Shown here: positions 1-11,597 of the stretch, one piece after another
Layout of the letters: the number at the start of each line of letters is the position of its first letter
Numbering within the stretch: position 1 is the first letter of the stretch
Origin: a virus
Lineage: Duplodnaviria > Heunggongvirae > Uroviricota > Caudoviricetes
Strand: one strand, 5' to 3'
Virus record (IMG/VR): IMGVR_UViG_638341087_000009
Coordinates: 1 to 11,597 of that record
DNA length: 11,597 bases
Notes under the pieces: model-generated
Told to the model about the DNA's origin: nothing
Databases searched by the model: none
Seen by the model: the letters and a program-made list of their open reading frames with translations, nothing else
Translations under genes and position numbers: made by a program

Positions 1-478
1 ACAGAGAATCCACCCATAACACTGTTTTTGGTTTTAACTGTTCCGCGTGCGCTGAGCCGCATTCACCGCATCACAAAATTCACTTTAAAAAGGGCGGCAG
101 AGCAGCCACGGAGTAAAACTGATACCGCCAAACGTCACCAGAAAATTGATAACAGAGGGCGTTGCAGCGGGGTTGTCACTTAAGCGTATGGTCAACCTGA
201 CAACCCGGTGTCCTCAACGGGGAAGGAATAACCCCGCCATACTTACCGCCGCGCCATTTCGCGGAGTGCCACAACCGGAAGCGCACGGTCGACGAAAATT
301 TAACGACAGGCTATCTATGAACCAGCTACCTCGCCGTGCGCTTTCGCGTTATGGTCTGACTTTTCAGGGAAATATCCTTTCAGTAAACTGTCAGTGCCGG
401 ATGCTCACCCGTGTCCGGCGCACGTACTCCACCTCACCCGTGGAGAACTCCTTAATCACCAACCCTCAGGAGGGTGAA

Positions 479-754
479 ATGTCGACTGAAAATGATGAAA
501 TCATTAACTCCCTGATACGCCAAATTAATAATTTTGATAAAGCATTGCAGCATGCTGCGGCGCGTAGTGATATAACTCTTTTAGCAATTTCATTTCTTGC
601 ATCTGTTATGGATAAAAATGAAGTCGTACGACAGAGTCTTGTTGATTATATCGACTCGCTTCAACCCGGCACTTTCAATCATGAGAGCTTCAATCATGAG
701 AAAGAGCATGTTAAGTCTGTAATTAATTCTCTTATTTTGAATCAAAAGAATTAA
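479..754 (+). CDS. Hypothetical small protein (91 aa), AT-rich insert (moron-like) in the early-left region
   Basis: ATG at 479 preceded by AGGAGGG (466-472, 6-nt spacing). Visibly lower GC than flanks. In-frame 15-bp tandem duplication (674-686 / 689-701, encoding FNHES/FNHEK). The upstream part of the 146..754 track ORF is Arg/Pro-rich, GC-rich and has no SD, so the start was moved to 479. No family recognised. Confidence 0.5.
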   Translation: MSTENDEIINSLIRQINNFDKALQHAAARSDITLLAISFLASVMDKNEVVRQSLVDYIDSLQPGTFNHESFNHEKEHVKSVINSLILNQKN

Positions 755-1052
755 TGCTTTTTGTTGCAAAGTAATTTTCAAGGGGTTCTATTCGAATCCC
801 TTTCTTTTTCATTAACAAGCCAAACCCCTTATCAATGATGTCCATTAGATCCAGGAAGTATTTTTCATGTAAATCCTGGTTATCAGAGAGCTGCTTCTCT
901 TCGTACAGACCGATAAAGGCACGACGCACGTTACCGGATATAGTATCGATGGTTTCTTTTTCTACGGTACTCAGGTCAAGAGTCGCCAGTTGGGAACGAA
1001 CTATATTCGCTGCCATTTCCTGGAATTGCATTGGTAAATCTTTAAATTCCAT
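732..1052 (-). CDS. Hypothetical protein (106 aa), last gene of the leftward early operon
   Basis: ORF with GAGG 6 nt upstream of ATG (complement of 1050-1052). Its 3' end overlaps the 479..754 gene convergently by 23 nt. No family recognised. Confidence 0.5.
   Translation of the reverse strand: MEFKDLPMQFQEMAANIVRSQLATLDLSTVEKETIDTISGNVRRAFIGLYEEKQLSDNQDLHEKYFLDLMDIIDKGFGLLMKKKGIRIEPLENYFATKSINSFDSK
780..809 (+). terminator. Candidate intrinsic terminator downstream of the 479..754 gene
   Basis: Hairpin 782-788 / 794-800 (GGGGTTC / GAATCCC, one G-U pair, 5-nt loop) followed by TTTCTTTTT (801-809). It lies inside the 3' end of the convergent 732..1052 ORF. Confidence 0.35.
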
Positions 1053-1074
1053 TATTAGCCTCGTTGGTTAGCTA

Positions 1075-1293
1075 TTAACGCGGGTATGTAATCATTCTGG
1101 CAATGCTTAATGCCGCTGCTTTTTCCAGATTGGTGATATCCTGCTCCAGAGCGGACAGATTTTCAGCCTGCTTAGCCCTGGCTTCATTAGCCCATTTCAG
1201 ATCCTGCGCTGCATTAATTTTCTGGCGCATCCACTCATAAAGTTCATCATCGGTATAGTCTGGCGAGATGATGACGGGTTCTCGTTTCTGCAT
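1075..1293 (-). CDS. Hypothetical small coiled-coil-like protein (72 aa)
   Basis: ORF with GAGGAA 5 nt upstream of ATG (complement of 1291-1293). Charged, helical-looking sequence; 22-nt gap to the next gene downstream. Confidence 0.55.
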   Translation of the reverse strand: MQKREPVIISPDYTDDELYEWMRQKINAAQDLKWANEARAKQAENLSALEQDITNLEKAAALSIARMITYPR

Positions 1294-1322
1294 ACTGATT
1301 CCTCGCGGTGCTGCTTCGCTTA

Positions 1323-1451
1323 TCAGCCGTTAGATTTTGCCGAGCTGGAAAGCGCCTGTTTAAACTCACTGAAGCTGAGAGCTTCTTCGCCTTCGGCAAG
1401 GCCTTCGAAGTATTCTTCGTAAGCCTTTTCCATGATTGTGTCGAAATCCAT
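1323..1451 (-). CDS. Small acidic protein (42 aa), not in the supplied ORF track
   Basis: Hand translation of the minus strand gives MDFDTIMEKAYEEYFEGLAEGEEALSFSEFKQALSSSAKSNG. AGGTGA lies 6 nt upstream; the start sits 1 nt after the stop of the upstream 80-aa gene. The two listed ORFs covering this interval (1247..1456 -, 1308..1505 +) look like frame shadows. Confidence 0.45.
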   Translation of the reverse strand: MDFDTIMEKAYEEYFEGLAEGEEALSFSEFKQALSSSAKSNG

Positions 1452-1452
1452 A

Positions 1453-1695
1453 TCACTCACCTGAGTTTCTTTCCAGCCAGCGACGGGCACCATTTTCGGT
1501 TTTAAACGTTTTGCTTTTGGTATACGTCATCGCGGTGAATGTGCCGTCCTGGTTGGGAAACACGCCGTACACCAGAGATTCATTGTTGCCAAGATCGATA
1601 GTATCCATGCTGACCTCATTTCCCCTTAACGCCGGGGTAGCGGAACTAAAAAACTGCTGCGCTGTTATATAAAGTGTTCCCGCCGTCATGTTCAT
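1453..1695 (-). CDS. Hypothetical protein (80 aa), first gene of the leftward early operon
   Basis: ORF with GAGGCG 4 nt upstream of ATG; sits about 85 nt downstream of the pL-like promoter. Not Arg-rich, so not obviously N-like. An internal Met would give a 50-aa product. Confidence 0.5.
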   Translation of the reverse strand: MNMTAGTLYITAQQFFSSATPALRGNEVSMDTIDLGNNESLVYGVFPNQDGTFTAMTYTKSKTFKTENGARRWLERNSGE

Positions 1696-1787
1696 ACGCC
1701 TCGGGCTGGCTACTTAACCCCTGACCACTGCCGGGTAACTCGAGGTATTGCCCTGCGTTCTGTGGGGCGGGGTGGGTTGGTGAGCGC

Positions 1788-1817
1788 ATCATAAAACACA
1801 TAAAATGTGTTAGTCAA
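1788..1817 (-). promoter_or_regulatory. pL-like sigma70 promoter for the leftward early operon
   Basis: Minus strand reads TTGACT (complement of 1812-1817), 18-bp spacer, TATGAT (complement of 1788-1793). Read directly from the sequence. Confidence 0.5.
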
Positions 1818-1831
1818 CACAAAAAAAGTGT
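1795..1831. promoter_or_regulatory. Two operator-like palindromes (ACACA-N5-TGTGT type) inside the pL-like promoter
   Basis: Site A 1795-1811 AACACA-TAAAA-TGTGTT, a perfect 17-bp palindrome in the promoter spacer. Site B 1817-1831 ACACA-AAAAA-AGTGT, overlapping the -35. Centres are 21 bp apart (two helical turns). The same motif recurs at 2849-2865. Confidence 0.5.
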
Positions 1832-1840
1832 GCGCAAGAA

Positions 1841-1872
1841 TAAAAAAACTCCCATTCAAGAGGTGATGGGAG
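1841..1872 (-). terminator. Intrinsic terminator ending the repressor/toxin-antitoxin transcript
   Basis: Stem 1849-1855 CTCCCAT / 1866-1872 ATGGGAG, followed on the minus strand by a 7-nt U tract (plus-strand A run 1842-1848). Immediately downstream of the ParE-like stop. Confidence 0.6.
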
Positions 1873-1883
1873 GTGGTTGATTA

Positions 1884-2171
1884 TTAACCGTTACCAGGAT
1901 ATTGCTGACGAGCATGTATCACGCTTACAATTTCAATGCTTGAAGTCGCTACCCTGTATAGGATTATGTAGTTAGGGTGGGTCACAATTTCTCTCAATCC
2001 AGAAACCCGTTCGCTTGGCGGGTATAGATACGGATGCTCAGATAGGGGCAGCACCGATGTTTCAATGCGTATTTTTAGTCTGCGCGCTGCCGGAGGGTTT
2101 TTTTTAGCAATGTAAGTTATAATCTGACTTAAATCATCGCGAGCAGACGGTAACCATAAAACGGGCAGCAT
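1884..2171 (-). CDS. parE: ParE/RelE-family type II toxin (95 aa)
   Basis: MLPVLWLPSARDDLSQIITYIAKKNPPAARR...YIILYRVATSSIEIVSVIHARQ fits the ParE pattern (L.W...A..DL..I..YIA...P.AA ... Y.I.YRV......I..V.HARQ). The start overlaps the upstream antitoxin stop (TAATG). The longer track ORF (136 aa) has an implausible Arg/Lys-rich N-terminal extension. Confidence 0.85.
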   Translation of the reverse strand: MLPVLWLPSARDDLSQIITYIAKKNPPAARRLKIRIETSVLPLSEHPYLYPPSERVSGLREIVTHPNYIILYRVATSSIEIVSVIHARQQYPGNG

Positions 2172-2362
2172 TACACGCTCCCGTTTTCCATGGCAATTTG
2201 ATTGATGATTTTTTCCATTTTTGCCATTACTTCGTCGTGCGGTATTGCTGGTCGTGGATCTGCAAGGCTTGCTGCAACCTTGGCGCGCAACCATTCGTTG
2301 TAACTGTTTTCTTGCTCGATAGTTTCAAATTCTGAAACTATTGGCGAAAGAACTGTGCTCAT
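2171..2362 (-). CDS. Cognate antitoxin (63 aa), ParD-like by context
   Basis: MSTVLSPIVSEFETIEQENSYNEWLRAKVAASLADPRPAIPHDEVMAKMEKIINQIAMENGSV. GAGAGG lies 7 nt upstream of the ATG; it is translationally coupled to parE. Assignment as antitoxin is strong; the exact family is less certain. Confidence 0.65.
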   Translation of the reverse strand: MSTVLSPIVSEFETIEQENSYNEWLRAKVAASLADPRPAIPHDEVMAKMEKIINQIAMENGSV

Positions 2363-2390
2363 AGTATGCCTCTCTGTCGTATGGTTGTAA

Positions 2391-2789
2391 TTATGCTCGA
2401 CGTCCTTTTTGGGCGGCGAGCCATCTTGCAACTGTGCGATCCATTGATTCTTTTTTGTCTTTCATGTCTTTAAGCATTTGTTCTTGCTCCTCTTCTGGGA
2501 AAGCCCCAAATGTTTGAAGCAAATCTCTCTGGCGCGGTCCTATTTTCATTGTATCAGGTACTACAACCTGTTCATCCTCGCTCGGAGGAAGCATGAACCA
2601 AAAAATAGGCCGAGCAGTTATTTGTGAAAGTCGATCTAAATTGTCAGGATTTGGACTAACCAAGCCTGCAGACCATCGCTGCACTGTTTGTTGCGACACT
2701 CCAACTAATTTCCCAAGCTCCGCCTGACTCCAGCCTGTTTCAGACAAGAGTTTCTTTATTCTATATGCAGTAATCTCGAGTGTTTTCAT
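2391..2789 (-). CDS. racR: Prophage repressor, RacR-like (XRE-family HTH), 132 aa from the proposed start
   Basis: HTH motif ...GWSQAELGKLVGVSQQTVQRWSAG... near the N-terminus. Start chosen at MKTLEIT (complement of 2787-2789); a TAGAAT -10 lies about 7 nt upstream, suggesting a near-leaderless mRNA like lambda cI from pRM. The alternative upstream start (2879) has no SD and would run through the operator region. Confidence 0.75.
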   Translation of the reverse strand: MKTLEITAYRIKKLLSETGWSQAELGKLVGVSQQTVQRWSAGLVSPNPDNLDRLSQITARPIFWFMLPPSEDEQVVVPDTMKIGPRQRDLLQTFGAFPEEEQEQMLKDMKDKKESMDRTVARWLAAQKGRRA

Positions 2790-2796
2790 AGTAACA

Positions 2797-2869
2797 ATTC
2801 TACTCAAAAAACGAGTAATGCGCGACACACGAAAATCGGGTTTACATATACACATTTTTTGTGTAATCT
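2797..2869. promoter_or_regulatory. Immunity switch region: divergent promoters and operator palindromes
   Basis: Leftward -10 TAGAAT (complement of 2797-2802) with a poor -35. Rightward TTTACA (2841-2846) with a -10-like TGTAAT/TAATCT (2862-2869). Palindrome TACACA-TTTTT-TGTGTA at 2849-2865 has the same half-sites as the pL operators. A second, different palindrome TACTC-N7-GAGTA sits at 2801-2817. Confidence 0.5.
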
Positions 2870-2895
2870 CCAGTCGCATGATGGAGGTACAAATA

Positions 2896-3168
2896 ATGAA
2901 TGATCATGTTAAGAAAAGGGTCGCGGGAAAATTTTCACAACGAGAACTGGCTATGTTAATGAGCACGAAACAACAAAGCGTATCTCGTTGGTTCAACTCT
3001 AAGTTCCCTGCATCAAGGGTGCTTCACTTGTGTCAATTGATGCAGTGGGAGGTTACTCCACACGAACTCCGACCAGACATTTACCCTAACCCAACCGACG
3101 GTTTACCCGTTGGATGTAAGGCTAACACATCAAATGCACCGGAGTTGATTCATGAAAATCAAGCATGA
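2896..3168 (+). CDS. ydaS: YdaS-like Cro/HTH protein (90 aa)
   Basis: GGAGG (2883-2887) 8 nt before ATG 2896. HTH-like ...FSQRELAMLMSTKQQSVSRW.... Divergent from the repressor, as in the Rac racR-ydaS-ydaT arrangement. The track ORF from 2818 is an upstream extension through the operator region. Confidence 0.7.
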   Translation: MNDHVKKRVAGKFSQRELAMLMSTKQQSVSRWFNSKFPASRVLHLCQLMQWEVTPHELRPDIYPNPTDGLPVGCKANTSNAPELIHENQA

Positions 3169-3577
3169 ACACATCCGCATGGCGATGAATGCCTGGGCGC
3201 ATCCGGACGGCGAGAAAGTACCGGCTGCGAAAATTACCAAAGCGTATTTCGAACTGGGTATGACGTTCCCGGAACTGTATGACGACAGCCATCCGGAAGC
3301 CCTGGCTCGCAATACCCAGAAAATTTTCCGCTGGGTAGAGAAAGACACTCCTGATGCGGTTAAAAAAATTCAGGCGTTGTTACCAGCTATCGAAAAAGCA
3401 ATGCCACCTCTGCTGGTGGCCCGAATGCGCAGCCATAGCTCAGCCTATTTTCGGGAACTGGTGGAGACGCGGGAACGACTGGTGAGAGACGCTGATGATT
3501 TTGTCGCAGTGGCGATCGCTGGTTTCAACCAGATGAATCGTGGTGGCCCTGCAGGAAATATTGTGGCTGTGCATTGA
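3152..3577 (+). CDS. ydaT: YdaT-like protein (141 aa)
   Basis: ATG 3152 with GGAG 7 nt upstream; overlaps the ydaS 3' end by 17 nt. Sequence MKIKHEHIRMAMNAWAHPDGEKVPAAKITKAYFELGMTF... and the synteny recall Rac prophage YdaT. Confidence 0.7.
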   Translation: MKIKHEHIRMAMNAWAHPDGEKVPAAKITKAYFELGMTFPELYDDSHPEALARNTQKIFRWVEKDTPDAVKKIQALLPAIEKAMPPLLVARMRSHSSAYFRELVETRERLVRDADDFVAVAIAGFNQMNRGGPAGNIVAVH

Positions 3578-3648
3578 CTCGCAATATTCATACCGGATCA
3601 CTTCCGGCAATTTGTGAGTAAAAAGATTCGGTATCAGAAGAGGTGAGT

Positions 3649-4686
3649 ATGGCTAACGCCTGGCTCAGATTATGGCATGACATGCCAAATGATCCTAAGT
3701 GGCGAACAATTTCCAGGGTGTCAGGACAGCCAATCGCAACAGTGATGGCTGTGTATATCCACCTTCTGGTGAGCGCGTCACGAAATGTCACGACATGTCA
3801 CGGCGTGTCACTACGTGGTCACATTGATGTCACGACGGAAGATTTAGCAAGTGCGCTTGATGTGACGGAAGACGTAATTGATTCAATTTTGCATGCAATG
3901 CAGGGGCGGGTTCTGGATGGTGACCTTATTTCCGGATGGGAAAAACGTCAGGTGCTGAAAGAGGACAATGGTAACGTTTCGCAAACGGCAAAATCCCCGG
4001 CAGAGCGCAAGAGAGCGCAGCGGGAGCGCGAAAAGCTGCGGAAATATGATGCTGATTGTCACGATGAGTCACGACGTGTCACGCATCTGTCACGACAAGT
4101 CACGACAGATAAAGATACAGATACAGAATTAAACCCCACACATAACGCGCGCATGCGCGAGAGTGCTCCAACCGGTGAGTCGAATGGTGCGTCGTTGCAG
4201 ACAGCCGAACCTGAATACCTGGACGGCCTGAGCGAACCGATCGGGAAATTTTCGATGACCACTGTCTGGCAGCCGTCGCCGGATTTTCGACAACGGGCAG
4301 CAGTGTGGGGTATGGCTCTGCCTGAGCCGGAATTTACACCTGCTGAGCTTGCCGCATTCCGGGATTACTGGATGGCGGAGGGGAAGGTTTTCACGCAGGT
4401 TCAGTGGGAGCAGAAATTTGCCCGCCACGTGCAGCACGTCAGGGCACAGGTAAAACCAGTCAGCAAGGGGGTAAGCCATGCAGCATCAGGTGGCACGGCA
4501 TCACGGGCAGTTCAGGAAATCCGGGCAGCACGCGAACAGTGGGAACGTGACAACGGATTTATCAGCAACGGAAACGGCCTGGAAGCTGTGGGAGCTTATG
4601 GGGGAGGTGTATTCGAACCGCTGGACACAGAAGAACGGGGCCGCACCTTCGAAGCTCTGGATTGCCCAGATTGGCGCGATGACTGA
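3649..4686 (+). CDS. Replication initiator (lambda O-like role); 3' boundary uncertain
   Basis: ATG 3649 with GAGGTG 4-9 nt upstream. The N-terminus MANAWLRLWHDMPNDPKWR looks like a phage replisome-organiser N-domain. The gene contains two iteron clusters in its low-complexity linker, as the lambda origin lies inside O. The last 209 nt overlap the P-like gene in another frame. Confidence 0.65.
   Translation: MANAWLRLWHDMPNDPKWRTISRVSGQPIATVMAVYIHLLVSASRNVTTCHGVSLRGHIDVTTEDLASALDVTEDVIDSILHAMQGRVLDGDLISGWEKRQVLKEDNGNVSQTAKSPAERKRAQREREKLRKYDADCHDESRRVTHLSRQVTTDKDTDTELNPTHNARMRESAPTGESNGASLQTAEPEYLDGLSEPIGKFSMTTVWQPSPDFRQRAAVWGMALPEPEFTPAELAAFRDYWMAEGKVFTQVQWEQKFARHVQHVRAQVKPVSKGVSHAASGGTASRAVQEIRAAREQWERDNGFISNGNGLEAVGAYGGGVFEPLDTEERGRTFEALDCPDWRDD
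3777..3834. repeat. Iteron cluster 1: six GTCAC(G) repeats at 10-11 bp spacing
   Basis: GTCACG at 3777, 3787, 3797 and 3829; GTCACT at 3807; GTCAC at 3818. Units resemble tGTCACGnnn. Confidence 0.75.
4058..4135. repeat. Iteron cluster 2 (five GTCACG repeats) with an adjacent AT-rich patch: candidate origin
   Basis: GTCACG at 4058, 4068, 4078, 4089 and 4099 (10-11 bp phasing), followed by AGATAAAGATACAGATACAGAATTAAACC (4107-4135). Confidence 0.7.
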
Positions 4687-5140
4687 ACAGCAAATCCGGC
4701 TGGTCTGCCGTCAGTGCATGGACCGCTGCCGGGCGGGTGAAACGTGGCCCCCGGACCTTGCTGAGTTTGTTGCACTGATTTCGGAGAGTGGGGCAAATCC
4801 ATTTGGTCTTACGGTGGATGCAGTGATGGAAGAGTACCGGCGCTGGCGCAATGAATCCTGGCGATACGACGGGAGTGATAAATACCCGTGGCCACAGCCT
4901 GTGCTGTACCACATCTGCCTCGAAATGCGTACCAGAGGGATTGAGCGCCAGATGACGCAGGGTGAGTTAAAACGACTTGCGGAACGGCAACTGACGAAAT
5001 GGGCAAAGCATGTTGGTAACGGGATGAGTGTTCCGCCAGTGCGACGACAACTGGAAGGGGCGAAACACCCGCAAGGGCCAACGCCAATTGAACGGCTGAA
5101 ACAGGAATACGAACGCCGGAAGGCAGCTGGTTTTATTTGA
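4478..5140 (+). CDS. Lambda P-like replication protein (DnaB helicase loader), 220 aa
   Basis: Segment ...DLAEFVALISE...MEEYRRWRNESWRYDGSDKYPWPQPVLYHICLEMRTRG...ELKRLAERQL... matches from memory lambda P (...FVAWCRE...YEYCRKRGLYPDAESYPWKSNAHYWLVTNLYQNMRANALTDAELRRKAADEL...). AAGGGGG (4465-4471) lies 6 nt before ATG 4478. Alternative in-frame starts are ATG 4598 and ATG 4679, the latter overlapping the O-like stop as ATGACTGA. Confidence 0.7.
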   Translation: MQHQVARHHGQFRKSGQHANSGNVTTDLSATETAWKLWELMGEVYSNRWTQKNGAAPSKLWIAQIGAMTEQQIRLVCRQCMDRCRAGETWPPDLAEFVALISESGANPFGLTVDAVMEEYRRWRNESWRYDGSDKYPWPQPVLYHICLEMRTRGIERQMTQGELKRLAERQLTKWAKHVGNGMSVPPVRRQLEGAKHPQGPTPIERLKQEYERRKAAGFI

Positions 5141-5173
5141 ATCTGAGAAACGATTTTGTCGGAGGAAATATTA

Positions 5174-5848
5174 ATGGAAACCGTATCTGACGCACTGAAA
5201 GCACTGAAAAAAGCCTCTTCACATGTGGTGGCAGCTCGCCTTGGAATCAGTCGTGAAGAGGCTGTCAACGAGCTGTGGGAACTCAAAAGAAAAGGCGTCG
5301 TTGATAAAACTGGTCACACCTGGTTTCTGGCTGGCGAAGGTGAATCCCGGGTAACCGAAGAGCGGCCAGTAAAATCTGAAGCACAGGATATGCTGACCGG
5401 GGAGGTCGAACAAAAAGTTACCGCAGACATGATGATTGAGTTTATCGGTCAGGATGGGGCTAAAACGTGTGAGGAACTGGCGGGTAAGTTCGGTGTCAGT
5501 ACTCGCAAGGTTGCTTCCACGCTGGCGGTGGTAACCGCAACGGGGCGGCTGGCACGCGTTAATCAGAACGGTAAATTTCGTTACTGCATGCCGGGCGATA
5601 ATTTACCAGCAGAGCCGAAAGCCGCGCTGGTAACGGAAAGTGATGGTAAGGCCTTTCCTCAGCCAGCAGGTGCTGCGTTACCAGTCCGGGAAGCCGCAAC
5701 ACAGGAAGAAATTAAAACAGAAACTGTGGCGGACATTGTGCAGCCGTTGCCATCGTTTACCGAAACGCAAGCAGATGAGCTGATTTTTCCGTCCCTTCGC
5801 AGGGCAAACCTGGCGCTGCGCAGGGCGAAAAGTGATGTTCAGAAGTGA
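5174..5848 (+). CDS. Hypothetical protein (224 aa) with two winged-helix-like repeats
   Basis: GGAGGA (5161-5166) 7 nt before ATG 5174. Two similar modules of about 50 aa (ALKALKKASSHVVAARLGISREEAVNELWELKRKGVVDKTG and MIEFIGQDGAKTCEELAGKFGVSTRKVASTLAVVTATGRLARVNQNG). Function unknown. Confidence 0.6.
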   Translation: METVSDALKALKKASSHVVAARLGISREEAVNELWELKRKGVVDKTGHTWFLAGEGESRVTEERPVKSEAQDMLTGEVEQKVTADMMIEFIGQDGAKTCEELAGKFGVSTRKVASTLAVVTATGRLARVNQNGKFRYCMPGDNLPAEPKAALVTESDGKAFPQPAGAALPVREAATQEEIKTETVADIVQPLPSFTETQADELIFPSLRRANLALRRAKSDVQK

Positions 5849-5959
5849 GAGCGAGTCTGCGCCGCGCTGCGGGAGCTGAACAAGCACCGGGATATTGTTC
5901 GACAGATTACTGATTCTTCCCGCCGTGTTGTATCGGAAAAGTGATTGCCGGAGGCGCTT

Positions 5960-6382
5960 ATGGCAAAAGTATTTACACAAGAAGAGCGGGAAAAAATTAA
6001 AGGGCAGGTTGTTGAACTAGTACGCCGGAGTGGGCGCGAGACGTTACGGCAACTGGAAGCCAAGACAGGTGCGACAAGATATCTGATGAGCGTTCTCGCC
6101 AGAGAGCTGGTTGCCAGTGGCGATGTATACAACTCTGGTTACGGGTTATTCCCGTCTGAACAGGCTCGTAAGGACTGGCAAAATGCCCGCAAAAAACTAT
6201 CTAGGGCAAAGGTGAAGAAACCATCTGTGGTTGATCCGGATCTTATCTGGTCATTACCAGACGGAGAAATACGCCGCTACGACAGGCGTCTGAACATAAT
6301 CTGTAGCGAGTGCCGGAAGAGCGAAGCTATGCAGCGTGTACTGGCTTTCTATCAGGGTAATTTTCAGAAGGTGCTGTTGTGA
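5960..6382 (+). CDS. Hypothetical protein (140 aa), nin-like region
   Basis: GGAGG (5950-5954) 5 nt before ATG 5960. Charged N-terminus with a C-terminal CSEC motif. No family recognised. Confidence 0.55.
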   Translation: MAKVFTQEEREKIKGQVVELVRRSGRETLRQLEAKTGATRYLMSVLARELVASGDVYNSGYGLFPSEQARKDWQNARKKLSRAKVKKPSVVDPDLIWSLPDGEIRRYDRRLNIICSECRKSEAMQRVLAFYQGNFQKVLL

Positions 6383-6487
6383 GCCAAATTAACAATCGGA
6401 ACTTCGTGAAGAGAAAGCATAATCCAAATCTGAATAATTAAGTTCAGCACTGTAAATAAAATTTAATCCTTAACTGGAGGTATATTT

Positions 6488-6700
6488 ATGTTAAATACAC
6501 AGAAAGCCATTAATGCGGAAAAATATAACGAGTGGGCAAGAAAATTCTCTGAGCAGATTTTTAAAATTACTGGCGATGAGAATGTGGCAAAAAATGAATT
6601 AGAACCGTGGACACCTGAAGGAAACGCACCAAATTATTGCTGGTGGGAGGTTGATCCGGTTGATGCTGCAAATGAAGCCATGAGTTACCACAACGATTAA
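6488..6700 (+). CDS. Hypothetical small protein (70 aa), AT-rich
   Basis: GGAGG (6476-6480) 7 nt before the ATG, in an AT-rich island. No family recognised. Confidence 0.55.
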   Translation: MLNTQKAINAEKYNEWARKFSEQIFKITGDENVAKNELEPWTPEGNAPNYCWWEVDPVDAANEAMSYHND

Positions 6701-6704
6701 TGTC

Positions 6705-6735
6705 GGGAGGCCGCCCGAAAGGGCGGTAAGAAATG
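6705..6735 (+). promoter_or_regulatory. SD-hairpin-start codon arrangement upstream of the membrane-protein gene
   Basis: GGGAGG (6705-6710), then hairpin CCGCCC-GAAA-GGGCGG (6711-6726, GAAA tetraloop), then ATG 6733. The hairpin sits between the SD and the start codon. Confidence 0.35.
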
Positions 6736-6951
6736 ACTACATTATTCAGAAAAGAATATCCGCAAAAAAGTAGGGCGACAGAATTTTTGTTTCTCATTCT
6801 GTTTATCGTATTGATGATACCGATATCCCCTCTAATTTTTGTCTGGGCAATCGGGAAAATAATTGAGCCAGTTACTGAATTGTATACCGACGTTGTATGG
6901 GCGTCGTTCAACACACTGCACAATAAAATTAATCCGTATAAGGAAAACTGA
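6733..6951 (+). CDS. Small predicted membrane protein (72 aa)
   Basis: Hydrophobic stretch EFLFLILFIVLMIPISPLIFVWAIG consistent with a transmembrane helix. Its stop overlaps the next start as TGATATG. Confidence 0.5.
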   Translation: MTTLFRKEYPQKSRATEFLFLILFIVLMIPISPLIFVWAIGKIIEPVTELYTDVVWASFNTLHNKINPYKEN

Positions 6952-6952
6952 T

Positions 6953-7216
6953 ATGGCAACTTTGACAAAAAAAGAACGGGCATGGTTAAACGAATTACAG
7001 GAAGTTCTTGATCGCTGTCCATCACCGAAAAAAATTGGCTTTTACACCATTGGCGATAAAAGCATTTACCTGTATGACCTACGCCGCATGGATGAAATCA
7101 TGGAGGCTCTTGATAATCGTTCGTCGATGGATTGGTGTGTTGCTGTTCATGATATGAATGCAGGGTTTGATGAAAAGATTTTGTTCCCCTCATCAGTTGA
7201 AAGCACTGCGGGTTAA
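6953..7216 (+). CDS. Hypothetical small protein (87 aa)
   Basis: ATG 6953 two nt after the upstream stop, with AAGGAAAA upstream. The track ORF from 6863 is an upstream extension overlapping the preceding gene. Confidence 0.5.
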   Translation: MATLTKKERAWLNELQEVLDRCPSPKKIGFYTIGDKSIYLYDLRRMDEIMEALDNRSSMDWCVAVHDMNAGFDEKILFPSSVESTAG

Positions 7217-7226
7217 GGAGTAACAC

Positions 7227-8096
7227 ATGACCACTATTACCAAAGAACGTATTGAATTGTTCATTAAAAATCCGGTTGAAAACGGGCTTACCCGTGGTGA
7301 ACAAATGGAACTGGCACGGATTGCGCTGGCATCGCTGGAAGCAGAGCCGGTGGCAAAGATTATAGCTCATTACCCATTAGGGGTTGACGTAGGCAAACAA
7401 AAATTCGTACAGGCCATTAGAGAGCTTCCTGACTTTGGCGGATATCTATTTGCCGCCCCTCCAGCGCCGATAGTGCCGGAAGAAATGTATTGGCAGGATG
7501 CGCCAGTTGAAGGCAGCAGCAAAGCGGCTGCATACGCTACAGGCTGGAACGATTGCCGCGAAGCCATGCTTCAGTCCGGAAACTTTCGGGAAAATAAAGA
7601 TTCGTCAACCAATAATTTTCGGAAAATCCCGGAAGCGTCAACCAGCTCTCCGGTAACTCCGGCTCTTCTGCCTGGTGGTTTCACCATTGAGGAGGCGAAG
7701 GAATTACATGAAGACCTGGTACGCAGCCACATAAGCAAGGCCTTAAGTGGCGAAAAGATGAAAAAGAAAGATCGCGATGCTGATTTGCGCTGGATTCATG
7801 GCGTTATAGTTCAGGCAGCGTGGTTTGTAAAAGCATCACTGGAGCAGAATGCACTATCGGGCAACTATCCGGTAACTCCGGATAGTTGGATAAGCTGTAG
7901 TGAGCGAATGCCGGATACCAAAACAGCCGTTCTTGTTGCCGTGGAGTTTGACAGGAAAGGTGACTGGCGAATGAAATGGGCGACTTACATCCCGGGGCAT
8001 CCTGACGCTAATGATGGGTGGATAATTCCTGGTGCGTCGTGGAAACCGTCACACTGGATGCCGCTACCAGAACCGCCGCAGGAGGTGCGCCAATGA
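7227..8096 (+). CDS. DUF551 domain-containing phage protein (289 aa)
   Basis: AAGGAG (7215-7220) 6 nt before the ATG. C-terminus ...WISCSERMPDTKTAVLVAV...GWIIPGASWKPSHWMPLPEPP matches the DUF551 signature recalled from memory (WxxxxExxP ... HWMPLPEPP). The roughly 220-aa N-terminal region is unassigned. Confidence 0.7.
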   Translation: MTTITKERIELFIKNPVENGLTRGEQMELARIALASLEAEPVAKIIAHYPLGVDVGKQKFVQAIRELPDFGGYLFAAPPAPIVPEEMYWQDAPVEGSSKAAAYATGWNDCREAMLQSGNFRENKDSSTNNFRKIPEASTSSPVTPALLPGGFTIEEAKELHEDLVRSHISKALSGEKMKKKDRDADLRWIHGVIVQAAWFVKASLEQNALSGNYPVTPDSWISCSERMPDTKTAVLVAVEFDRKGDWRMKWATYIPGHPDANDGWIIPGASWKPSHWMPLPEPPQEVRQ

Positions 8097-8176
8097 ACTG
8101 GCCTGAAGCATTTGCAATTACAGGCGTTGCTATGGCTATCGCTTTTTTAGTATATGTTATTTGTCGGTGGGGGTAA
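8093..8176 (+). CDS. Unannotated tiny hydrophobic ORF (27 aa): MNWPEAFAITGVAMAIAFLVYVICRWG
   Basis: ATG overlaps the upstream stop (ATGA); GGAGGTG (8081-8087) lies 5 nt upstream. One predicted transmembrane segment. Too short for the ORF track. Confidence 0.35.
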   Translation: MNWPEAFAITGVAMAIAFLVYVICRWG

Positions 8177-8211
8177 AAACGTTCGCCGGGATTAACACCA
8201 AAGGAGGGAAT

Positions 8212-8316
8212 ATGTCGGATGATATCTCACTGGCAATGGAAGGTGCGCTGGCTGTTATTGCTGTTGTGGGCGTTTACTGCCTGGTTGTGTTTTTGATGGA
8301 TCGACTAGGGAACTAA
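8212..8316 (+). CDS. Unannotated small membrane peptide (34 aa): MSDDISLAMEGALAVIAVVGVYCLVVFLMDRLGN
   Basis: Strong SD AAGGAGGG (8201-8208) 3-4 nt before the ATG. One transmembrane segment with a charged C-terminus. Confidence 0.45.
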   Translation: MSDDISLAMEGALAVIAVVGVYCLVVFLMDRLGN

Positions 8317-8324
8317 ATTCATTA

Positions 8325-8346
8325 CGATATGGGAATTCCCATATCG
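8325..8346. repeat. 22-bp perfect palindrome CGATATGGGAATTCCCATATCG
   Basis: Exact inverted repeat with no spacer, centred on GAATTC, between the small-peptide gene and the hok promoter. Confidence 0.8.
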
Positions 8347-8358
8347 GGTAAAAACGGT

Positions 8359-8386
8359 TTGCGGTAAAGCGAGAGTTAAGTAGAAT
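8359..8386 (+). promoter_or_regulatory. Candidate promoter for the hok/mok mRNA
   Basis: TTGCGG (8359-8364), 16-bp spacer, TAGAAT (8381-8386). Predicted start near 8393 gives an mRNA of about 420 nt to the terminator at 8812, similar to known hok mRNAs. Confidence 0.4.
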
Positions 8387-8440
8387 TGCTGCGGGCGCTT
8401 GAGGCTGTCTGCCTCGGGCATGCCACCGTAAGGCAGACAG

Positions 8441-8512
8441 AGAAAAGCCCCAGTTAACATTACGCGTCCGGCAAGACGCTTAACATTAATCTGAGGCCAT
8501 ATCTATGCTCTA
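8441..8512 (-). ncRNA. Candidate Sok-like antisense RNA (about 70 nt)
   Basis: Weak minus-strand promoter (TTGCCT, complement of 8543-8548; 17-bp spacer; TAACCT, complement of 8520-8525). Transcript would be antisense to the mok-frame SD and ATG (8493-8507). It would end in a minus-strand hairpin (arms 8491-8497 / 8447-8453, inner stem 8464-8468 / 8475-8479) followed by UUUUCU. Structure-based inference only. Confidence 0.3.
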
Positions 8513-8561
8513 CACACGTAGGTTAGCCTCTTACGTGCCGAAAGGCAAGGAGAAGCAGGCT

Positions 8562-8717
8562 ATGAAGCAGCAAAAGGCGATGCTAATCGCCCTGATCGTC
8601 ATCTGTTTAACCGTCATAGTGACGGCACTGGTAACGAGGAAAGACCTCTGCGAGGTACGAATCCGAACCGGCCAGACGGAGGTCGCTGTCTTCACAGCTT
8701 ACGAACCTGAGGAGTAA
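8562..8717 (+). CDS. hokD: Hok/Gef-family type I toxin (51 aa), closest to HokD/RelF; in-frame Mok-like extension from ATG 8505
   Basis: MKQQKAMLIALIVICLTVIVTALVTRKDLCEVRIRTGQTEVAVFTAYEPEE is the Hok family signature (transmembrane helix plus ...TRK.LCE..IR.G..EVAAF.AYE). AAGGAG (8547-8552) lies 9 nt before ATG 8562. The upstream in-frame ATG 8505 with its own GAGG gives a 70-aa form, as in chromosomal mok genes. Confidence 0.85.
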   Translation: MKQQKAMLIALIVICLTVIVTALVTRKDLCEVRIRTGQTEVAVFTAYEPEE

Positions 8718-8785
8718 GAGACCCGGCGGGGGAGAAATCCCTCGCCACCGCTGATGTGTCAGGCATCCTCAACGCACCCGCACTT

Positions 8786-8812
8786 AACCCGCTTCGGCGG
8801 GTTTTGTTTTTT
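8786..8812 (+). terminator. Intrinsic terminator of the hok transcript
   Basis: Stem AACCCGC / GCGGGTT with TTCG loop (8786-8803), followed by TTGTTTTTT. Confidence 0.65.
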
Positions 8813-8884
8813 CTGGTCGTTCTGGTTTACAATCCATCCGTCAGCCTGAACAACTGGCACCTGCTGCGCCAGCAGAGAAAACAG

Positions 8885-9163
8885 ATGGCGCACGATACCA
8901 AATTTTACAATTCGGATAACTCTGCCGCCCCTGCCAGCAGGCACGGGCGGCGTTCCCGCACTTTCAAATCTGACTGGTTCCAGCATCCCCCATGCACTGA
9001 AGAACAGGCCGAGTGGCTAATTCAGTGCTACCGCAGACACGGATACGAGATTAAGAAAGCCCTCAGCCTCGATTATCGTCACTGGATAATCTCCGTCAGG
9101 CTTCCTTACTCCGAACGACCACCGCGTCCGTCCCGCACATTCCAGCAACGCATCTGGAGGTAA
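8885..9163 (+). CDS. Hypothetical protein (92 aa), Rem-like by position
   Basis: ATG 8885; the track ORF from 8756 would run through the terminator. The order hok, small protein, DUF968 protein, Q matches my recollection of Qin prophage hokD-rem-ydfU-quuQ. Weak SD. Confidence 0.5.
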   Translation: MAHDTKFYNSDNSAAPASRHGRRSRTFKSDWFQHPPCTEEQAEWLIQCYRRHGYEIKKALSLDYRHWIISVRLPYSERPPRPSRTFQQRIWR

Positions 9164-9164
9164 C

Positions 9165-10211
9165 GTGCGGGTATTACTTCGACCTGTTCTGGTACCGGAA
9201 CTCGGGCTGGTGATCGTTAAGCCGGGCCGTGAATCCATGCCGGTATTCCACAATACCCGGGTACTGGTGGAGCCGGAACCGAAAAGCATGCGTAATCTGC
9301 CGTCCGGGGTCGTTCCTGCCGTTCGCCAGCCGCTGGCGGAGGATAAATCATTACTGCCATTTTTCAGCGACGAACGAGTGATTCGTGCTGCTGGTGGCGC
9401 TGGCGCATTGTCTGACTGGCTGTTGCGCCATATTAAATCCTGCCAGTGGCCACACGGCGATTATCATCACAGCGAAACCGTCATTCACCGTTATGGTACC
9501 GGCGCAATGGTGTTGTGCTGGCACTGCGACAACCAGCTGCGCGACCAGACCTCCGAATCACTGGAACATCTGGCTCAACAAAACCTGGCAGCCTGGATGA
9601 TTGACGTCATACGCCATGCAATGAATGGCTCGCAGGAGCGTGAATTATCTCTGGCTGAATTATCCTGGTGGGCGGTCCGCAATCAGGTGGCGGACGCGCT
9701 ACCGGAAGCGGTATTACGTCGTTCGCTGGGGTTGCGTGCGGAAAAAATCCGCTCAATGTACCGTGAAAGCGACATCGTACCGGGAGAGCAGACCGCCACC
9801 AGCATACTGAAGCAGCGCACAAAAAATCTTGCGCCGCTGCCTCACGCTCACCAGCAAAAACCGCCACAGGAAAAGACGGTGGTCAGCATTGCCGTTGATC
9901 CTGAGTCTCCGGAATCTTTCATGAAACGACCTAAACGTCGCCGCTGGGTTAACGAGAAATACACGCACTGGGTGAAGACACAGCCGTGTGCGTGTTGTGG
10001 TAAGCCTGCTGACGATCCGCATCACCTGATTGGTCATGGTCAGGGGGGAATGGGGACAAAATCTCACGATATTTTCACGCTACCGCTGTGTCGGGAGCAT
10101 CACAACGAGCTTCATGCGGATCCGCTGGCGTTCGAAGAAAAGCATGGTTCTCAGGTTGATTTAATTTTTCGTTTTCTTGATCACGCCTTTGCAACTGGCG
10201 TGCTTGGGTAA
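9165..10211 (+). CDS. ydfU: YdfU-like DUF968 protein (348 aa) with a Cys/His metal-binding-like C-terminus
   Basis: GTG start 4 nt after GGAGG (9156-9160). C-terminal motif ...QPCACCGKPADDPHHLIGHGQGGMGTKSHDIFTLPLCREHHNELH.... Length is close to K-12 YdfU (about 349 aa, recalled from memory). Confidence 0.7.
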   Translation: MRVLLRPVLVPELGLVIVKPGRESMPVFHNTRVLVEPEPKSMRNLPSGVVPAVRQPLAEDKSLLPFFSDERVIRAAGGAGALSDWLLRHIKSCQWPHGDYHHSETVIHRYGTGAMVLCWHCDNQLRDQTSESLEHLAQQNLAAWMIDVIRHAMNGSQERELSLAELSWWAVRNQVADALPEAVLRRSLGLRAEKIRSMYRESDIVPGEQTATSILKQRTKNLAPLPHAHQQKPPQEKTVVSIAVDPESPESFMKRPKRRRWVNEKYTHWVKTQPCACCGKPADDPHHLIGHGQGGMGTKSHDIFTLPLCREHHNELHADPLAFEEKHGSQVDLIFRFLDHAFATGVLG

Positions 10212-10223
10212 AAGAGGTGACTG

Positions 10224-10583
10224 ATGCTCATAGATTTGGTTTTACCTTACCCGCCGACGGTGAACACTTACTGGCGACGCCGTGGCAGCACATATTTTGT
10301 ATCAAAAGCCGGGGAGCGTTATCGCCGGGCTGTGGCGCTTATTGTTCGCCAGCAGCGACTGAAATTAAGCCTGTCCGGACGGCTGGCAATAAAAATTATT
10401 GCAGAGCCACCGGATAAGCGTCGTCGTGACCTGGACAATATTCTGAAAGCACCGCTGGATGCGCTGACGCATGCGGGAGTGCTCATTGATGACGAGCAGT
10501 TTGATGAAATCAATATTGTACGTGGTCAGCCAGTATCTGGTGGACGGCTGGGTGTGAAGATTTACAAAATTGAGAGTGAGTGA
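10224..10583 (+). CDS. rusA: RusA-family Holliday junction resolvase (119 aa)
   Basis: ...LPYPPTVNTYWRRRG...PPDKRRRDLDNILKAPLDALTHAGVLIDDEQ...GGRLGVKIY... matches RusA motifs recalled from memory (PPSNNRYY..., PDRRRRDLDN..K...DALT.AG...DD, GGRL). GAGGTG lies 4 nt before the ATG. Confidence 0.85.
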   Translation: MLIDLVLPYPPTVNTYWRRRGSTYFVSKAGERYRRAVALIVRQQRLKLSLSGRLAIKIIAEPPDKRRRDLDNILKAPLDALTHAGVLIDDEQFDEINIVRGQPVSGGRLGVKIYKIESE

Positions 10584-10591
10584 GCGTAAAT

Positions 10592-11122
10592 ATGATATAT
10601 CCGGAAATTACAGGCAAAAGCGGCGAACATTTACGCCTGAACACGCTGGAAGCAGTCTGGATCCAGGGGAAATTACGGATGTGGGGGCGGTGGTCGTATA
10701 TCGGTGGGGGTAAATCCGGAAATATGTTTAACCGGTTACTGGTTTCGAAAAAGCTGACGAAAACAGCAGTTAATGAGGTTTTACGCAGCATGAAGAAATC
10801 CGGGCTGGAAAAACCGGAACTTGAGGCATTTTTTCGGGATATGACCAGAGGGAAGCAGAAGAGCTGGTTGTCACATTGTACAGACACAGAGGCGTTGATT
10901 ATTGATCGCGTTATCAGTGAGGTGCTTGGGGAATATCCCGGGCTAATCAATATTCTCCGGCAAAGGTACGAAGGACGGGGAATGAGTAAGAGAAAAATGG
11001 CAGAATGTTTAAATCGTACTCACCCGGAATGGTGTTTCAGCACATGTGAGAAACGTATTGCAGGTTGGTTAGCCGTGGCTGAACACATGCTTTATGTACC
11101 TATGCACGATTCATTTCGATAA
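10592..11122 (+). CDS. Q-like late-gene antiterminator (176 aa); assignment mainly positional
   Basis: Immediately follows rusA (start 8 nt after its stop) and precedes a short terminator-bounded region, as Q does in lambdoid phages. Sequence similarity to Q families is not verified. Confidence 0.5.
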   Translation: MIYPEITGKSGEHLRLNTLEAVWIQGKLRMWGRWSYIGGGKSGNMFNRLLVSKKLTKTAVNEVLRSMKKSGLEKPELEAFFRDMTRGKQKSWLSHCTDTEALIIDRVISEVLGEYPGLINILRQRYEGRGMSKRKMAECLNRTHPEWCFSTCEKRIAGWLAVAEHMLYVPMHDSFR

Positions 11123-11129
11123 AAAAAGC

Positions 11130-11158
11130 TTGCTTTTTTACGCAGAAACAGCTTGAAT
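11130..11158 (+). promoter_or_regulatory. Candidate pR'-like late promoter
   Basis: TTGCTT (11130-11135), 17-bp spacer, TTGAAT (11153-11158), 8 nt after the Q-like stop. Weak match; placement is by analogy. Confidence 0.2.
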
Positions 11159-11216
11159 TCCTGTAAGCTTCGCAAAGCTGTATCGCGAGGCGAAATGCAA
11201 GTTTTTTCGCACAAGG

Positions 11217-11241
11217 AAGCCACCGGAAGGTGGTTTTTTTT
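11217..11241 (+). terminator. Intrinsic terminator (tR'-like)
   Basis: Stem GCCACC / GGTGG(T) with GGAA loop (11219-11233), followed by an 8-nt T run (11234-11241). Confidence 0.65.
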
Positions 11242-11364
11242 GTGTCCGTAATATACAGCAGCGCAATAAATTCGCTGGTGGTTATTAATACCGTTCTTTC
11301 AGCTTGCTGGCTTTTTCGACAAGAGTTATTGGTGTGTCACGTTAACCGAAAAAGGGAAAAAGAC

Positions 11365-11562
11365 ATGCTGAAACAGCAGGATATGACCGAAACCGCCAGA
11401 GTGGTGTTTAATGAATTAAGCGTTACCGAACCGGCGACAGTCGGGGAGGTTGCGCAGAATACTTACCTTTCACGCGAACGCTGCCAGTTAATACTGACCC
11501 AGCTTGTTATGGCGGGTCTGGCAGACTATCAGTGCGGTTGTTACAGACGCCTTCAGTCCTGA
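11365..11562 (+). CDS. Hypothetical small protein (65 aa), first gene after the tR'-like terminator
   Basis: ATG 11365 with AAGGG 8 nt upstream. The track ORF from 11230 would begin inside the terminator. Not hydrophobic, so not a holin. Confidence 0.45.
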   Translation: MLKQQDMTETARVVFNELSVTEPATVGEVAQNTYLSRERCQLILTQLVMAGLADYQCGCYRRLQS

Positions 11563-11575
11563 AGGCTTTTTATTT
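11549..11575 (+). terminator. Candidate intrinsic terminator overlapping the stop codon of the 65-aa gene
   Basis: Stem GCCTTCA / TGAAGGC with GTCC loop (11549-11566), followed by TTTTTATTT. Confidence 0.5.
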
Positions 11576-11597
11576 GTGGTGAATGGGCGGCTGGTGG

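Follow-up and report, generated by a model that had tools for sequence, protein, structure and literature searches.

A candidate accessory gene facing the dicBF operon in a variable slot of Qin-like prophages

Substitution patterns among its alleles mark a 91-aa open reading frame (ORF) as protein-coding and under purifying selection. The ORF lies in the window, the 11,597-nt stretch of viral DNA analyzed here (positions 1 to 11,597 of IMG/VR record IMGVR_UViG_638341087_000009). Profile comparison places its product as a divergent relative of PHROG 18692, a rare family of ~90-aa proteins. We lean toward reading it as a genuine, self-contained accessory gene; the slot that it occupies, between ydfC and dicF within the DicA-repressed dicBF operon of Qin-like prophages, is hypervariable. 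By itself the finding is minor, one more uncharacterized small prophage protein and an ordinary kind of gene; a rare family of ~90-aa proteins that repeatedly converge on early-operon genes behind a structured leader is, in addition, a defined and cheap experimental target.

The window covers the immunity and early region of an E. coli lambdoid prophage of the Qin/DicB type; its overall GC content is 49.1%. In QA-1986 630, the prophage adjoining yccA carries an identical copy of positions 440-1075. Two other loci in the window resemble toxin-antitoxin systems. On the minus strand (1884-2879), a 162-aa HTH protein takes the place of the prophage repressor and is followed immediately by genes for a paaA2-like antitoxin (PF21217, 3.2e-22) and a ParE toxin (PF05016, 6.3e-17); from these domain matches the arrangement looks like a three-component paaR2-paaA2-parE2-type module. 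On the plus strand (8393-8567), in the late-early region, Rfam identifies a sok antitoxin RNA (114 bits) and hence a hok/sok type I toxin-antitoxin locus.

Features of the ydfC-dicF interval and its surroundings in the window.
Feature	Position	Strand	Remarks
DicF sRNA	92-143	-	Rfam, 75 bits (gathering score 48); downstream in the operon faced by the 91-aa ORF
Weak candidate promoter	361-389	+	TTTTCA-17-TAAACT; 8/12, below scan threshold
Structured leader (predicted)	394-477	+	Hairpin 394-421, hairpin 424-448, anti-SD/SD pairing
Two-gene cassette	465-1054		590 bp; absent from phage Tritos, replaced by allelic cassettes elsewhere
Shine-Dalgarno (SD) AGGAGG	468-473	+	5 nt before ATG; in 4 of 5 cassette types examined at the slot
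91-aa ORF (type A)	ATG 479 to TAA 752-754	+	10.3 kDa, pI 5.4
15-bp tandem repeat	674-701	+	In frame, FNHES/FNHEK, at helix 3-4 junction
Imperfect palindrome	722-755		ATTAATTCTCTT / AAAAGAATTAAT; holds both stop codons
106-aa gene (extra dicBF-operon gene)	732-1052	-	Upstream of DicF, same strand; PHROG 6937
Intrinsic-terminator-like hairpin and T-tract	780-810	+	Inside coding sequence (KKKGIRIEPLEN) of the 106-aa gene
ydfC	1075-1293	-	Upstream of DicF, same strand; GC 47%
ydfB-like ORF		-	Upstream of DicF, same strand
ydfA/DUF1391	1453-1695	-	Upstream of DicF, same strand

The 91-aa reading frame and its protein family

An allele in a related viral locus (L003) is 79% identical to the window ORF in amino acids and differs from it at 42 of 276 nucleotides (15% of the DNA), with the frame kept. 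Between these two alleles the coding frame gives a dN/dS of 0.33 and the two alternative frames give 0.60 and 0.88; among distant family members the value is 0.22-0.25. The frame is unbroken in 67 of 80 related viral loci. It also stays open in relatives of 26-36% identity, in which R29, D31 (T in one distant member), R51, E74, and K75 are conserved.

RefSeq annotates the identical ORF with the identical start (WP_000102678.1). An open frame upstream of the ATG (146-478) is not conserved, with 0-34 codons open in the four relative loci that have enough upstream sequence for comparison, two more loci running off the contig end. Position 479 is therefore the start, and the degraded remnant of a larger gene, which an earlier reading made from the sequence alone had named as a finding that would count against it, is ruled out.

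Several observations of that sequence-only reading were borne out, beginning with the ORF itself at 479-754. Its GC content (34.8%) is lower than that of the window (49.1%), of the spacer to its left (54.5%), and of ydfC (47%), as had been stated of its neighbors; in a windowed calculation just 1.2% of all 276-nt windows are as low. The extent proposed for the insert, 479-809, needs two corrections: the low-GC tract continues to ~890, taking in the 3' half of the 106-aa gene (31.6% GC), and the indel relative to a cassette-less phage is 465-1054. The in-frame 15-bp tandem duplication was recovered by a repeat search as two exact 13-nt copies of TTCAATCATGAGA (674-686 and 689-701) with a period of 15, while Tandem Repeats Finder with a minimum score of 30 did not report this two-copy repeat. 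Among strains, the unit is present in one (P0004, P0005), two, or three (L007) copies.

The family assignment rests on a chain of matches. BLASTP aligns the 91-aa protein with the 92-aa type D ORF (P0136) at 28% identity (E 9e-6); type D lies beside dicF in other E. coli prophages and matches PHROG 18692 at 5.9e-63. Compared directly with the PHROG 18692 profile by hmmscan, the 91-aa protein gives a weak match (E 0.022; residues 9-88 against positions 6-89 of 92). A joint profile retrieves both subtypes as well as further members at 1e-20 to 1e-6, the members coming from E. coli, Salmonella, and four unassigned metagenome proteins. Just 19 cluster representatives were found among 1.84 billion proteins, and the subtype of the window is confined to E. 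coli-level sequences (15 clusters). With PHROG 18692 the 91-aa protein has in common a length of ~90 aa, a predicted four-helix layout, the motif R-[ST]-D ... S ... R ... EK(x)H ... S, and a location in which the gene, preceded by the same leader and SD, converges on the 3' end of an early-operon gene; it differs in being only 26-32% identical to the E. coli and Salmonella members. PHROG 18692 is annotated as function unknown.

The protein is predicted to be soluble, acidic, and four-helical. AF2 models it as four helices with low confidence (pLDDT 67 and 65 with two alignments). No membrane segment was found, the maximum Kyte-Doolittle 19-residue mean being 1.43, below the customary membrane cut-off of ~1.6. 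Searches of Pfam, NCBIfam, and PADLOC returned sub-threshold noise only (no Pfam match at E up to 1; best PADLOC match a partial one to BrxA, E 0.014, 12.7 bits) and no similarity to the superinfection-exclusion, abortive-infection, or defense families in these libraries. The family profile retrieved nothing from PDB sequences at E up to 10, and tblastn found no match to the protein in 50,697 phage records. A HEPN-like Rx4-6H motif was rejected on inspection by eye, the R being absent and the H not invariant. We found nothing on the gene in published literature on WP_000102678.1, PHROG 18692, or ydfC antisense. The profile search and structure prediction recommended by the sequence-only reading yielded the distant PHROG 18692 relationship and the low-confidence helical model; as a source of functional leads they failed, fold and sequence searches giving no functional homology.

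A hypervariable slot between ydfC and dicF

DicF was the sole match in an Rfam search of positions 1-1100 at E up to 1. The 91-aa ORF lies between the 106-aa gene and the long untranslated spacer preceding dicF, and the layout of the operon genes points it head-on into the dicBF operon; the earlier description of a gene transcribed against the early-left operon is apt as far as orientation goes, the plus-strand ORF opposing the dicBF genes. The operon, and the growth-inhibitory toxicity of DicF and DicB, have been described (PMC5069750).

Comparison of related loci indicates that, in Qin-like prophages, the interval between ydfC and dicF is hypervariable: no fewer than five alternative convergent cassettes occur there, flanked by conserved anchors, which are the leader with the SD at one end and the MEFKDLP domain of the minus-strand gene at the other. 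Against phage Tritos, the window has a 590-bp indel that holds both the 91-aa ORF and the 106-aa gene. In PPompW/Stx2a phages an allelic cassette shares with the window the SD and the N-terminal ~55 residues of the minus-strand gene (MEFKDLP...), whereas its C-terminal domain and its plus-strand ORF (77 aa) differ; the overlap is again 23 nt. Two further pairs, types D and E, join 133 aa with 92 aa and 122 aa with 100 aa, respectively. Among 80 viral loci with the window-type minus-strand gene, the plus-strand ORF is type A (the 91-aa ORF), type B (an unrelated 73-aa ORF, PHROG 7249), or lost; hhalign detected no homology of the 91-aa family to the type B ORF or to the PPompW ORF. What is exchanged between A and B is essentially just the ORF, from start codon to stop codon, and one 106-aa gene body occurs with type A, with type B, or with neither (type C). 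As judged from these alignments the slot is hierarchical, a two-gene cassette with a one-gene exchangeable unit inside. The description of the insert as a single gene is accurate at this finest scale, where the presence of A, of B, or of neither is the sole difference, but not against Tritos, where the inserted unit is the two-gene cassette.

The plus-strand ORF has been deleted, truncated, or cut by IS1 in 13 of the 80 loci and is therefore dispensable. Type A occurs in 198 of 5426 complete E. coli genomes; carriers of the cassette include strains NCTC86 (NZ_CP019778) and QA-1986 630. Two kinds of disruption can be described. In L014 (IMG/VR), P0012, P0013, and P0015, the type A ORF breaks off after approximately residue 43, where it runs into an IS1 end (...ASV|GDAANLLI). 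In L060 and L084, a deletion truncates the type B ORF and joins what is left to another, divergent DicF-like terminator hairpin (GGGCGGACATCAGCC...GATGCCGCC), the second at the locus.

The convergent 106-aa protein consists of the conserved MEFKDLP N-terminal domain of ~55 aa and a variable C-terminal part; its tail is set by whichever plus-strand ORF is present (FDSK, FDSKQEN, or ...EISINH, reading through). The convergent overlap of 23 nt between the two genes (732-754) is as the sequence-only reading gave it. The palindrome around the two stop codons has 12-nt arms, the left in the type A ORF and the right in the 106-aa gene, and gives both convergent proteins the residues INS near the C-terminus (VINSL, SINSF). 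The N-terminal ~55 residues, MEFKDLP...GLYEEK (890-1052, minus strand; also L002, L085, L087), recur in five or more PHROG families whose C-termini are unrelated (6937, 1363, 2151, 9419, and 33007); they could represent either a conserved domain or an anchor for recombination to which variable ends are fused.

Expression signals and competing explanations

The SD of the ORF is strong, as claimed. In the predicted leader structure it is partly sequestered by pairing with an anti-SD. The three helices of the leader show compensatory changes across loci (z = -3.67 for the window alone), and the consensus energy is -25.7 kcal/mol on the plus strand versus -17.2 on the minus strand, the greater stability of the plus strand being due to G-U pairs. 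The leader, which is not in Rfam, is present in L088, L090, L091, L085, L087, L002, and Tritos (L001). It also occurs in phages without any plus-strand ORF, and may therefore be an element of the DicF precursor instead of one serving the ORF. In the Salmonella locus (L088, 2230-2275), a DicF-like hairpin with an A-run (gctttaaaaagggcggatacc...ggtaccgcc) lies at the dicF position, below the Rfam gathering score.

A promoter scan found no sigma-70 promoter of at least 9/12 upstream of the ORF. At the spot of the weaker candidate at 361-389, relatives have a -10-like element, extended in L090; the candidate sequence is also found in phages without the ORF. Downstream, the terminator scan reports a stem at 780-802 of nine pairs, one of them G-U, followed by TCTTTTTC to 810; the hairpin has an energy of -11.6 kcal/mol on the plus strand and of -8.9, with no T-run, on the minus strand. 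It is part of the neighbor's coding sequence and is retained in loci that lost the ORF, so that its conservation does not prove a terminator role. The claim that the ORF has its own hairpin and T-tract inside the 3' end of the neighbor is to that extent confirmed for the feature and not for its role.

A self-contained gene in this position would be transcribed from the weak promoter at the start of the leader or from a promoter not recognized here, and the transcript would end at 780-810, inside the 3' end of the 106-aa gene. Since the operon that the ORF faces is silent in the lysogen, the lysogen is where the protein would be made, with dicBF off. On induction, the operon would fire and shut the ORF down through colliding polymerases and through pairing of sense with antisense RNA, as happens with lambda OOP and cII. 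The protein has no catalytic motif, and would therefore most likely act by binding another protein. Our best guess at its role, one to which the sequence lends no support, is a benefit to the lysogen through exclusion, defense, or modulation of host or phage. Small exclusion and counter-defense genes tend toward hypervariable slots such as this one.

Ranked behind the self-contained gene, and in our view unlikely, is a cognate two-gene module in which the 91-aa protein would bind or neutralize the C-terminal domain of the 106-aa protein, with linkage of the two genes maintained by their 3' overlap; such a module could be toxin-antitoxin-like, an effector with self-immunity, or a regulator with its anti-regulator. 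The slot holds five different pairs of common architecture, and family members converge on and overlap the 3' ends of early-operon genes in four independent contexts, by 23 nt in the window (type A) and by 41 nt each in type D (L085), Salmonella (L088), and a P2/186-like element (L090). The partner in Salmonella is a 71-aa gene and that in L090 is a CII-like HTH protein, at whose C-terminus the C-terminal segment of the 106-aa protein recurs (45% over 29 aa, E 3e-6), which hints at partnership. On the other hand, the same minus-strand gene body occurs with the unrelated type B ORF or with none, and the type D and Salmonella partner domain has no similarity to that of the window. The L090 ORF is nearer to D (48%) than to A (36%) while its partner resembles that of A, so ORF and partner do not co-diverge; a strict co-divergence of the ORF with the partner's C-terminal domain was rejected on this mismatch and on the unrelated D/Salmonella domain. 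The homologue in L091 stands alone, converging on cI with no called gene overlapped; its 3' end meets only a doubtful 55-aa TTG-start ORF (739-906), and it has its own intergenic terminator and an extended -10. Moreover, neither protein matches a PADLOC or toxin-antitoxin Pfam family, and the 106-aa partner has no defense or toxin-antitoxin match in PADLOC, Pfam, or NCBIfam. The unrelated D/Salmonella domain, the missing co-divergence, the unpaired types B and C, and the solitary L091 homologue are the reasons for which we rank the autonomous gene first and the cognate pair second.

We consider it improbable that the functional product is the antisense transcript, or convergent transcription itself, damping read-through into dicF and dicB, with the protein secondary. 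Unrelated ORFs (A, B, PPompW, D) share the slot, the orientation, the leader, and the SD, suggesting that position and orientation are under selection; the slot is directly upstream of the growth-inhibitory DicF and DicB (PMC5069750), and from 394 to 810 any plus-strand transcript would be complementary to the operon RNA. Yet the protein sequence itself is under purifying selection over a range of 26-79% identity, the ORF has a strong SD, family members are also found without a recognizable DicF nearby (L091, and Salmonella, where the candidate falls below the Rfam threshold), and cassette-less phages such as Tritos retain dicF and dicB. A slim chance may likewise be given to the idea that the PHROG 18692-related family and the leader together form a convergent "guard" of the toxic early-left operon, a new protein-plus-antisense module. 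If true, the guard would hold dicF and dicB (or, through its C-terminal domain, an adjacent early protein) in check during lysogeny and be overridden on induction, and the ydfC-dicF slot would be a small hotspot of interchangeable guard modules. Least likely of all is a decaying passenger ORF, functionless in this prophage. Its loss from 13 of 80 loci, its slippage polymorphism of one to three repeat copies, the empty promoter scan, and its restriction to 198 of the complete E. coli genomes fit a passenger; a dN/dS far below 1, a frame kept open in two alleles with a 15% difference in DNA, and motif residues common to relatives of 26-36% identity argue against one.

Comparison with known systems

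Morons were reportedly defined for lambdoid phages by Juhala, Hendrix, and colleagues in 2000. The 91-aa gene resembles one in being a discrete low-GC insert with a terminator-like hairpin, present or absent among relatives and placed between conserved operon genes; it differs in that the slot has conserved recombination anchors and several alleles rather than a one-off insertion, and in the lack of a clear promoter. The sequence-only reading had called it a moron, and on these sequence features that is a fair label: it is AT-rich and mosaic, has its own SD and terminator-like hairpin, and is present, absent, or replaced in relatives, with the 8/12 match at 361-389 as its candidate promoter.

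The precedent invoked for such a position in lambdoid phages is by analogy sound, the nearest in placement and orientation being lambda sieB, which lies on the strand opposite pL and converges on N. Like sieB of lambda, P22, and Rac (PF14163), the 91-aa gene would be an accessory gene that opposes the early-left operon and converges on an early gene. SieB, by contrast, is a protein of 160-190 aa with membrane segments, while the 91-aa protein has no hydrophobic segment long enough. A Pfam search found no PF14163 domain in it, with lambda SieB scoring 1e-29 in the same library, and on both grounds we rejected its identification as SieB.

The arrangement of transcripts has a likeness in lambda OOP RNA and the 3' end of cII, whose convergent overlapping transcripts are cleaved by RNase III. 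Here, the plus-strand transcript would similarly overlap the last ~79 nt of a convergent early gene, with the difference that the convergent transcript encodes a protein.
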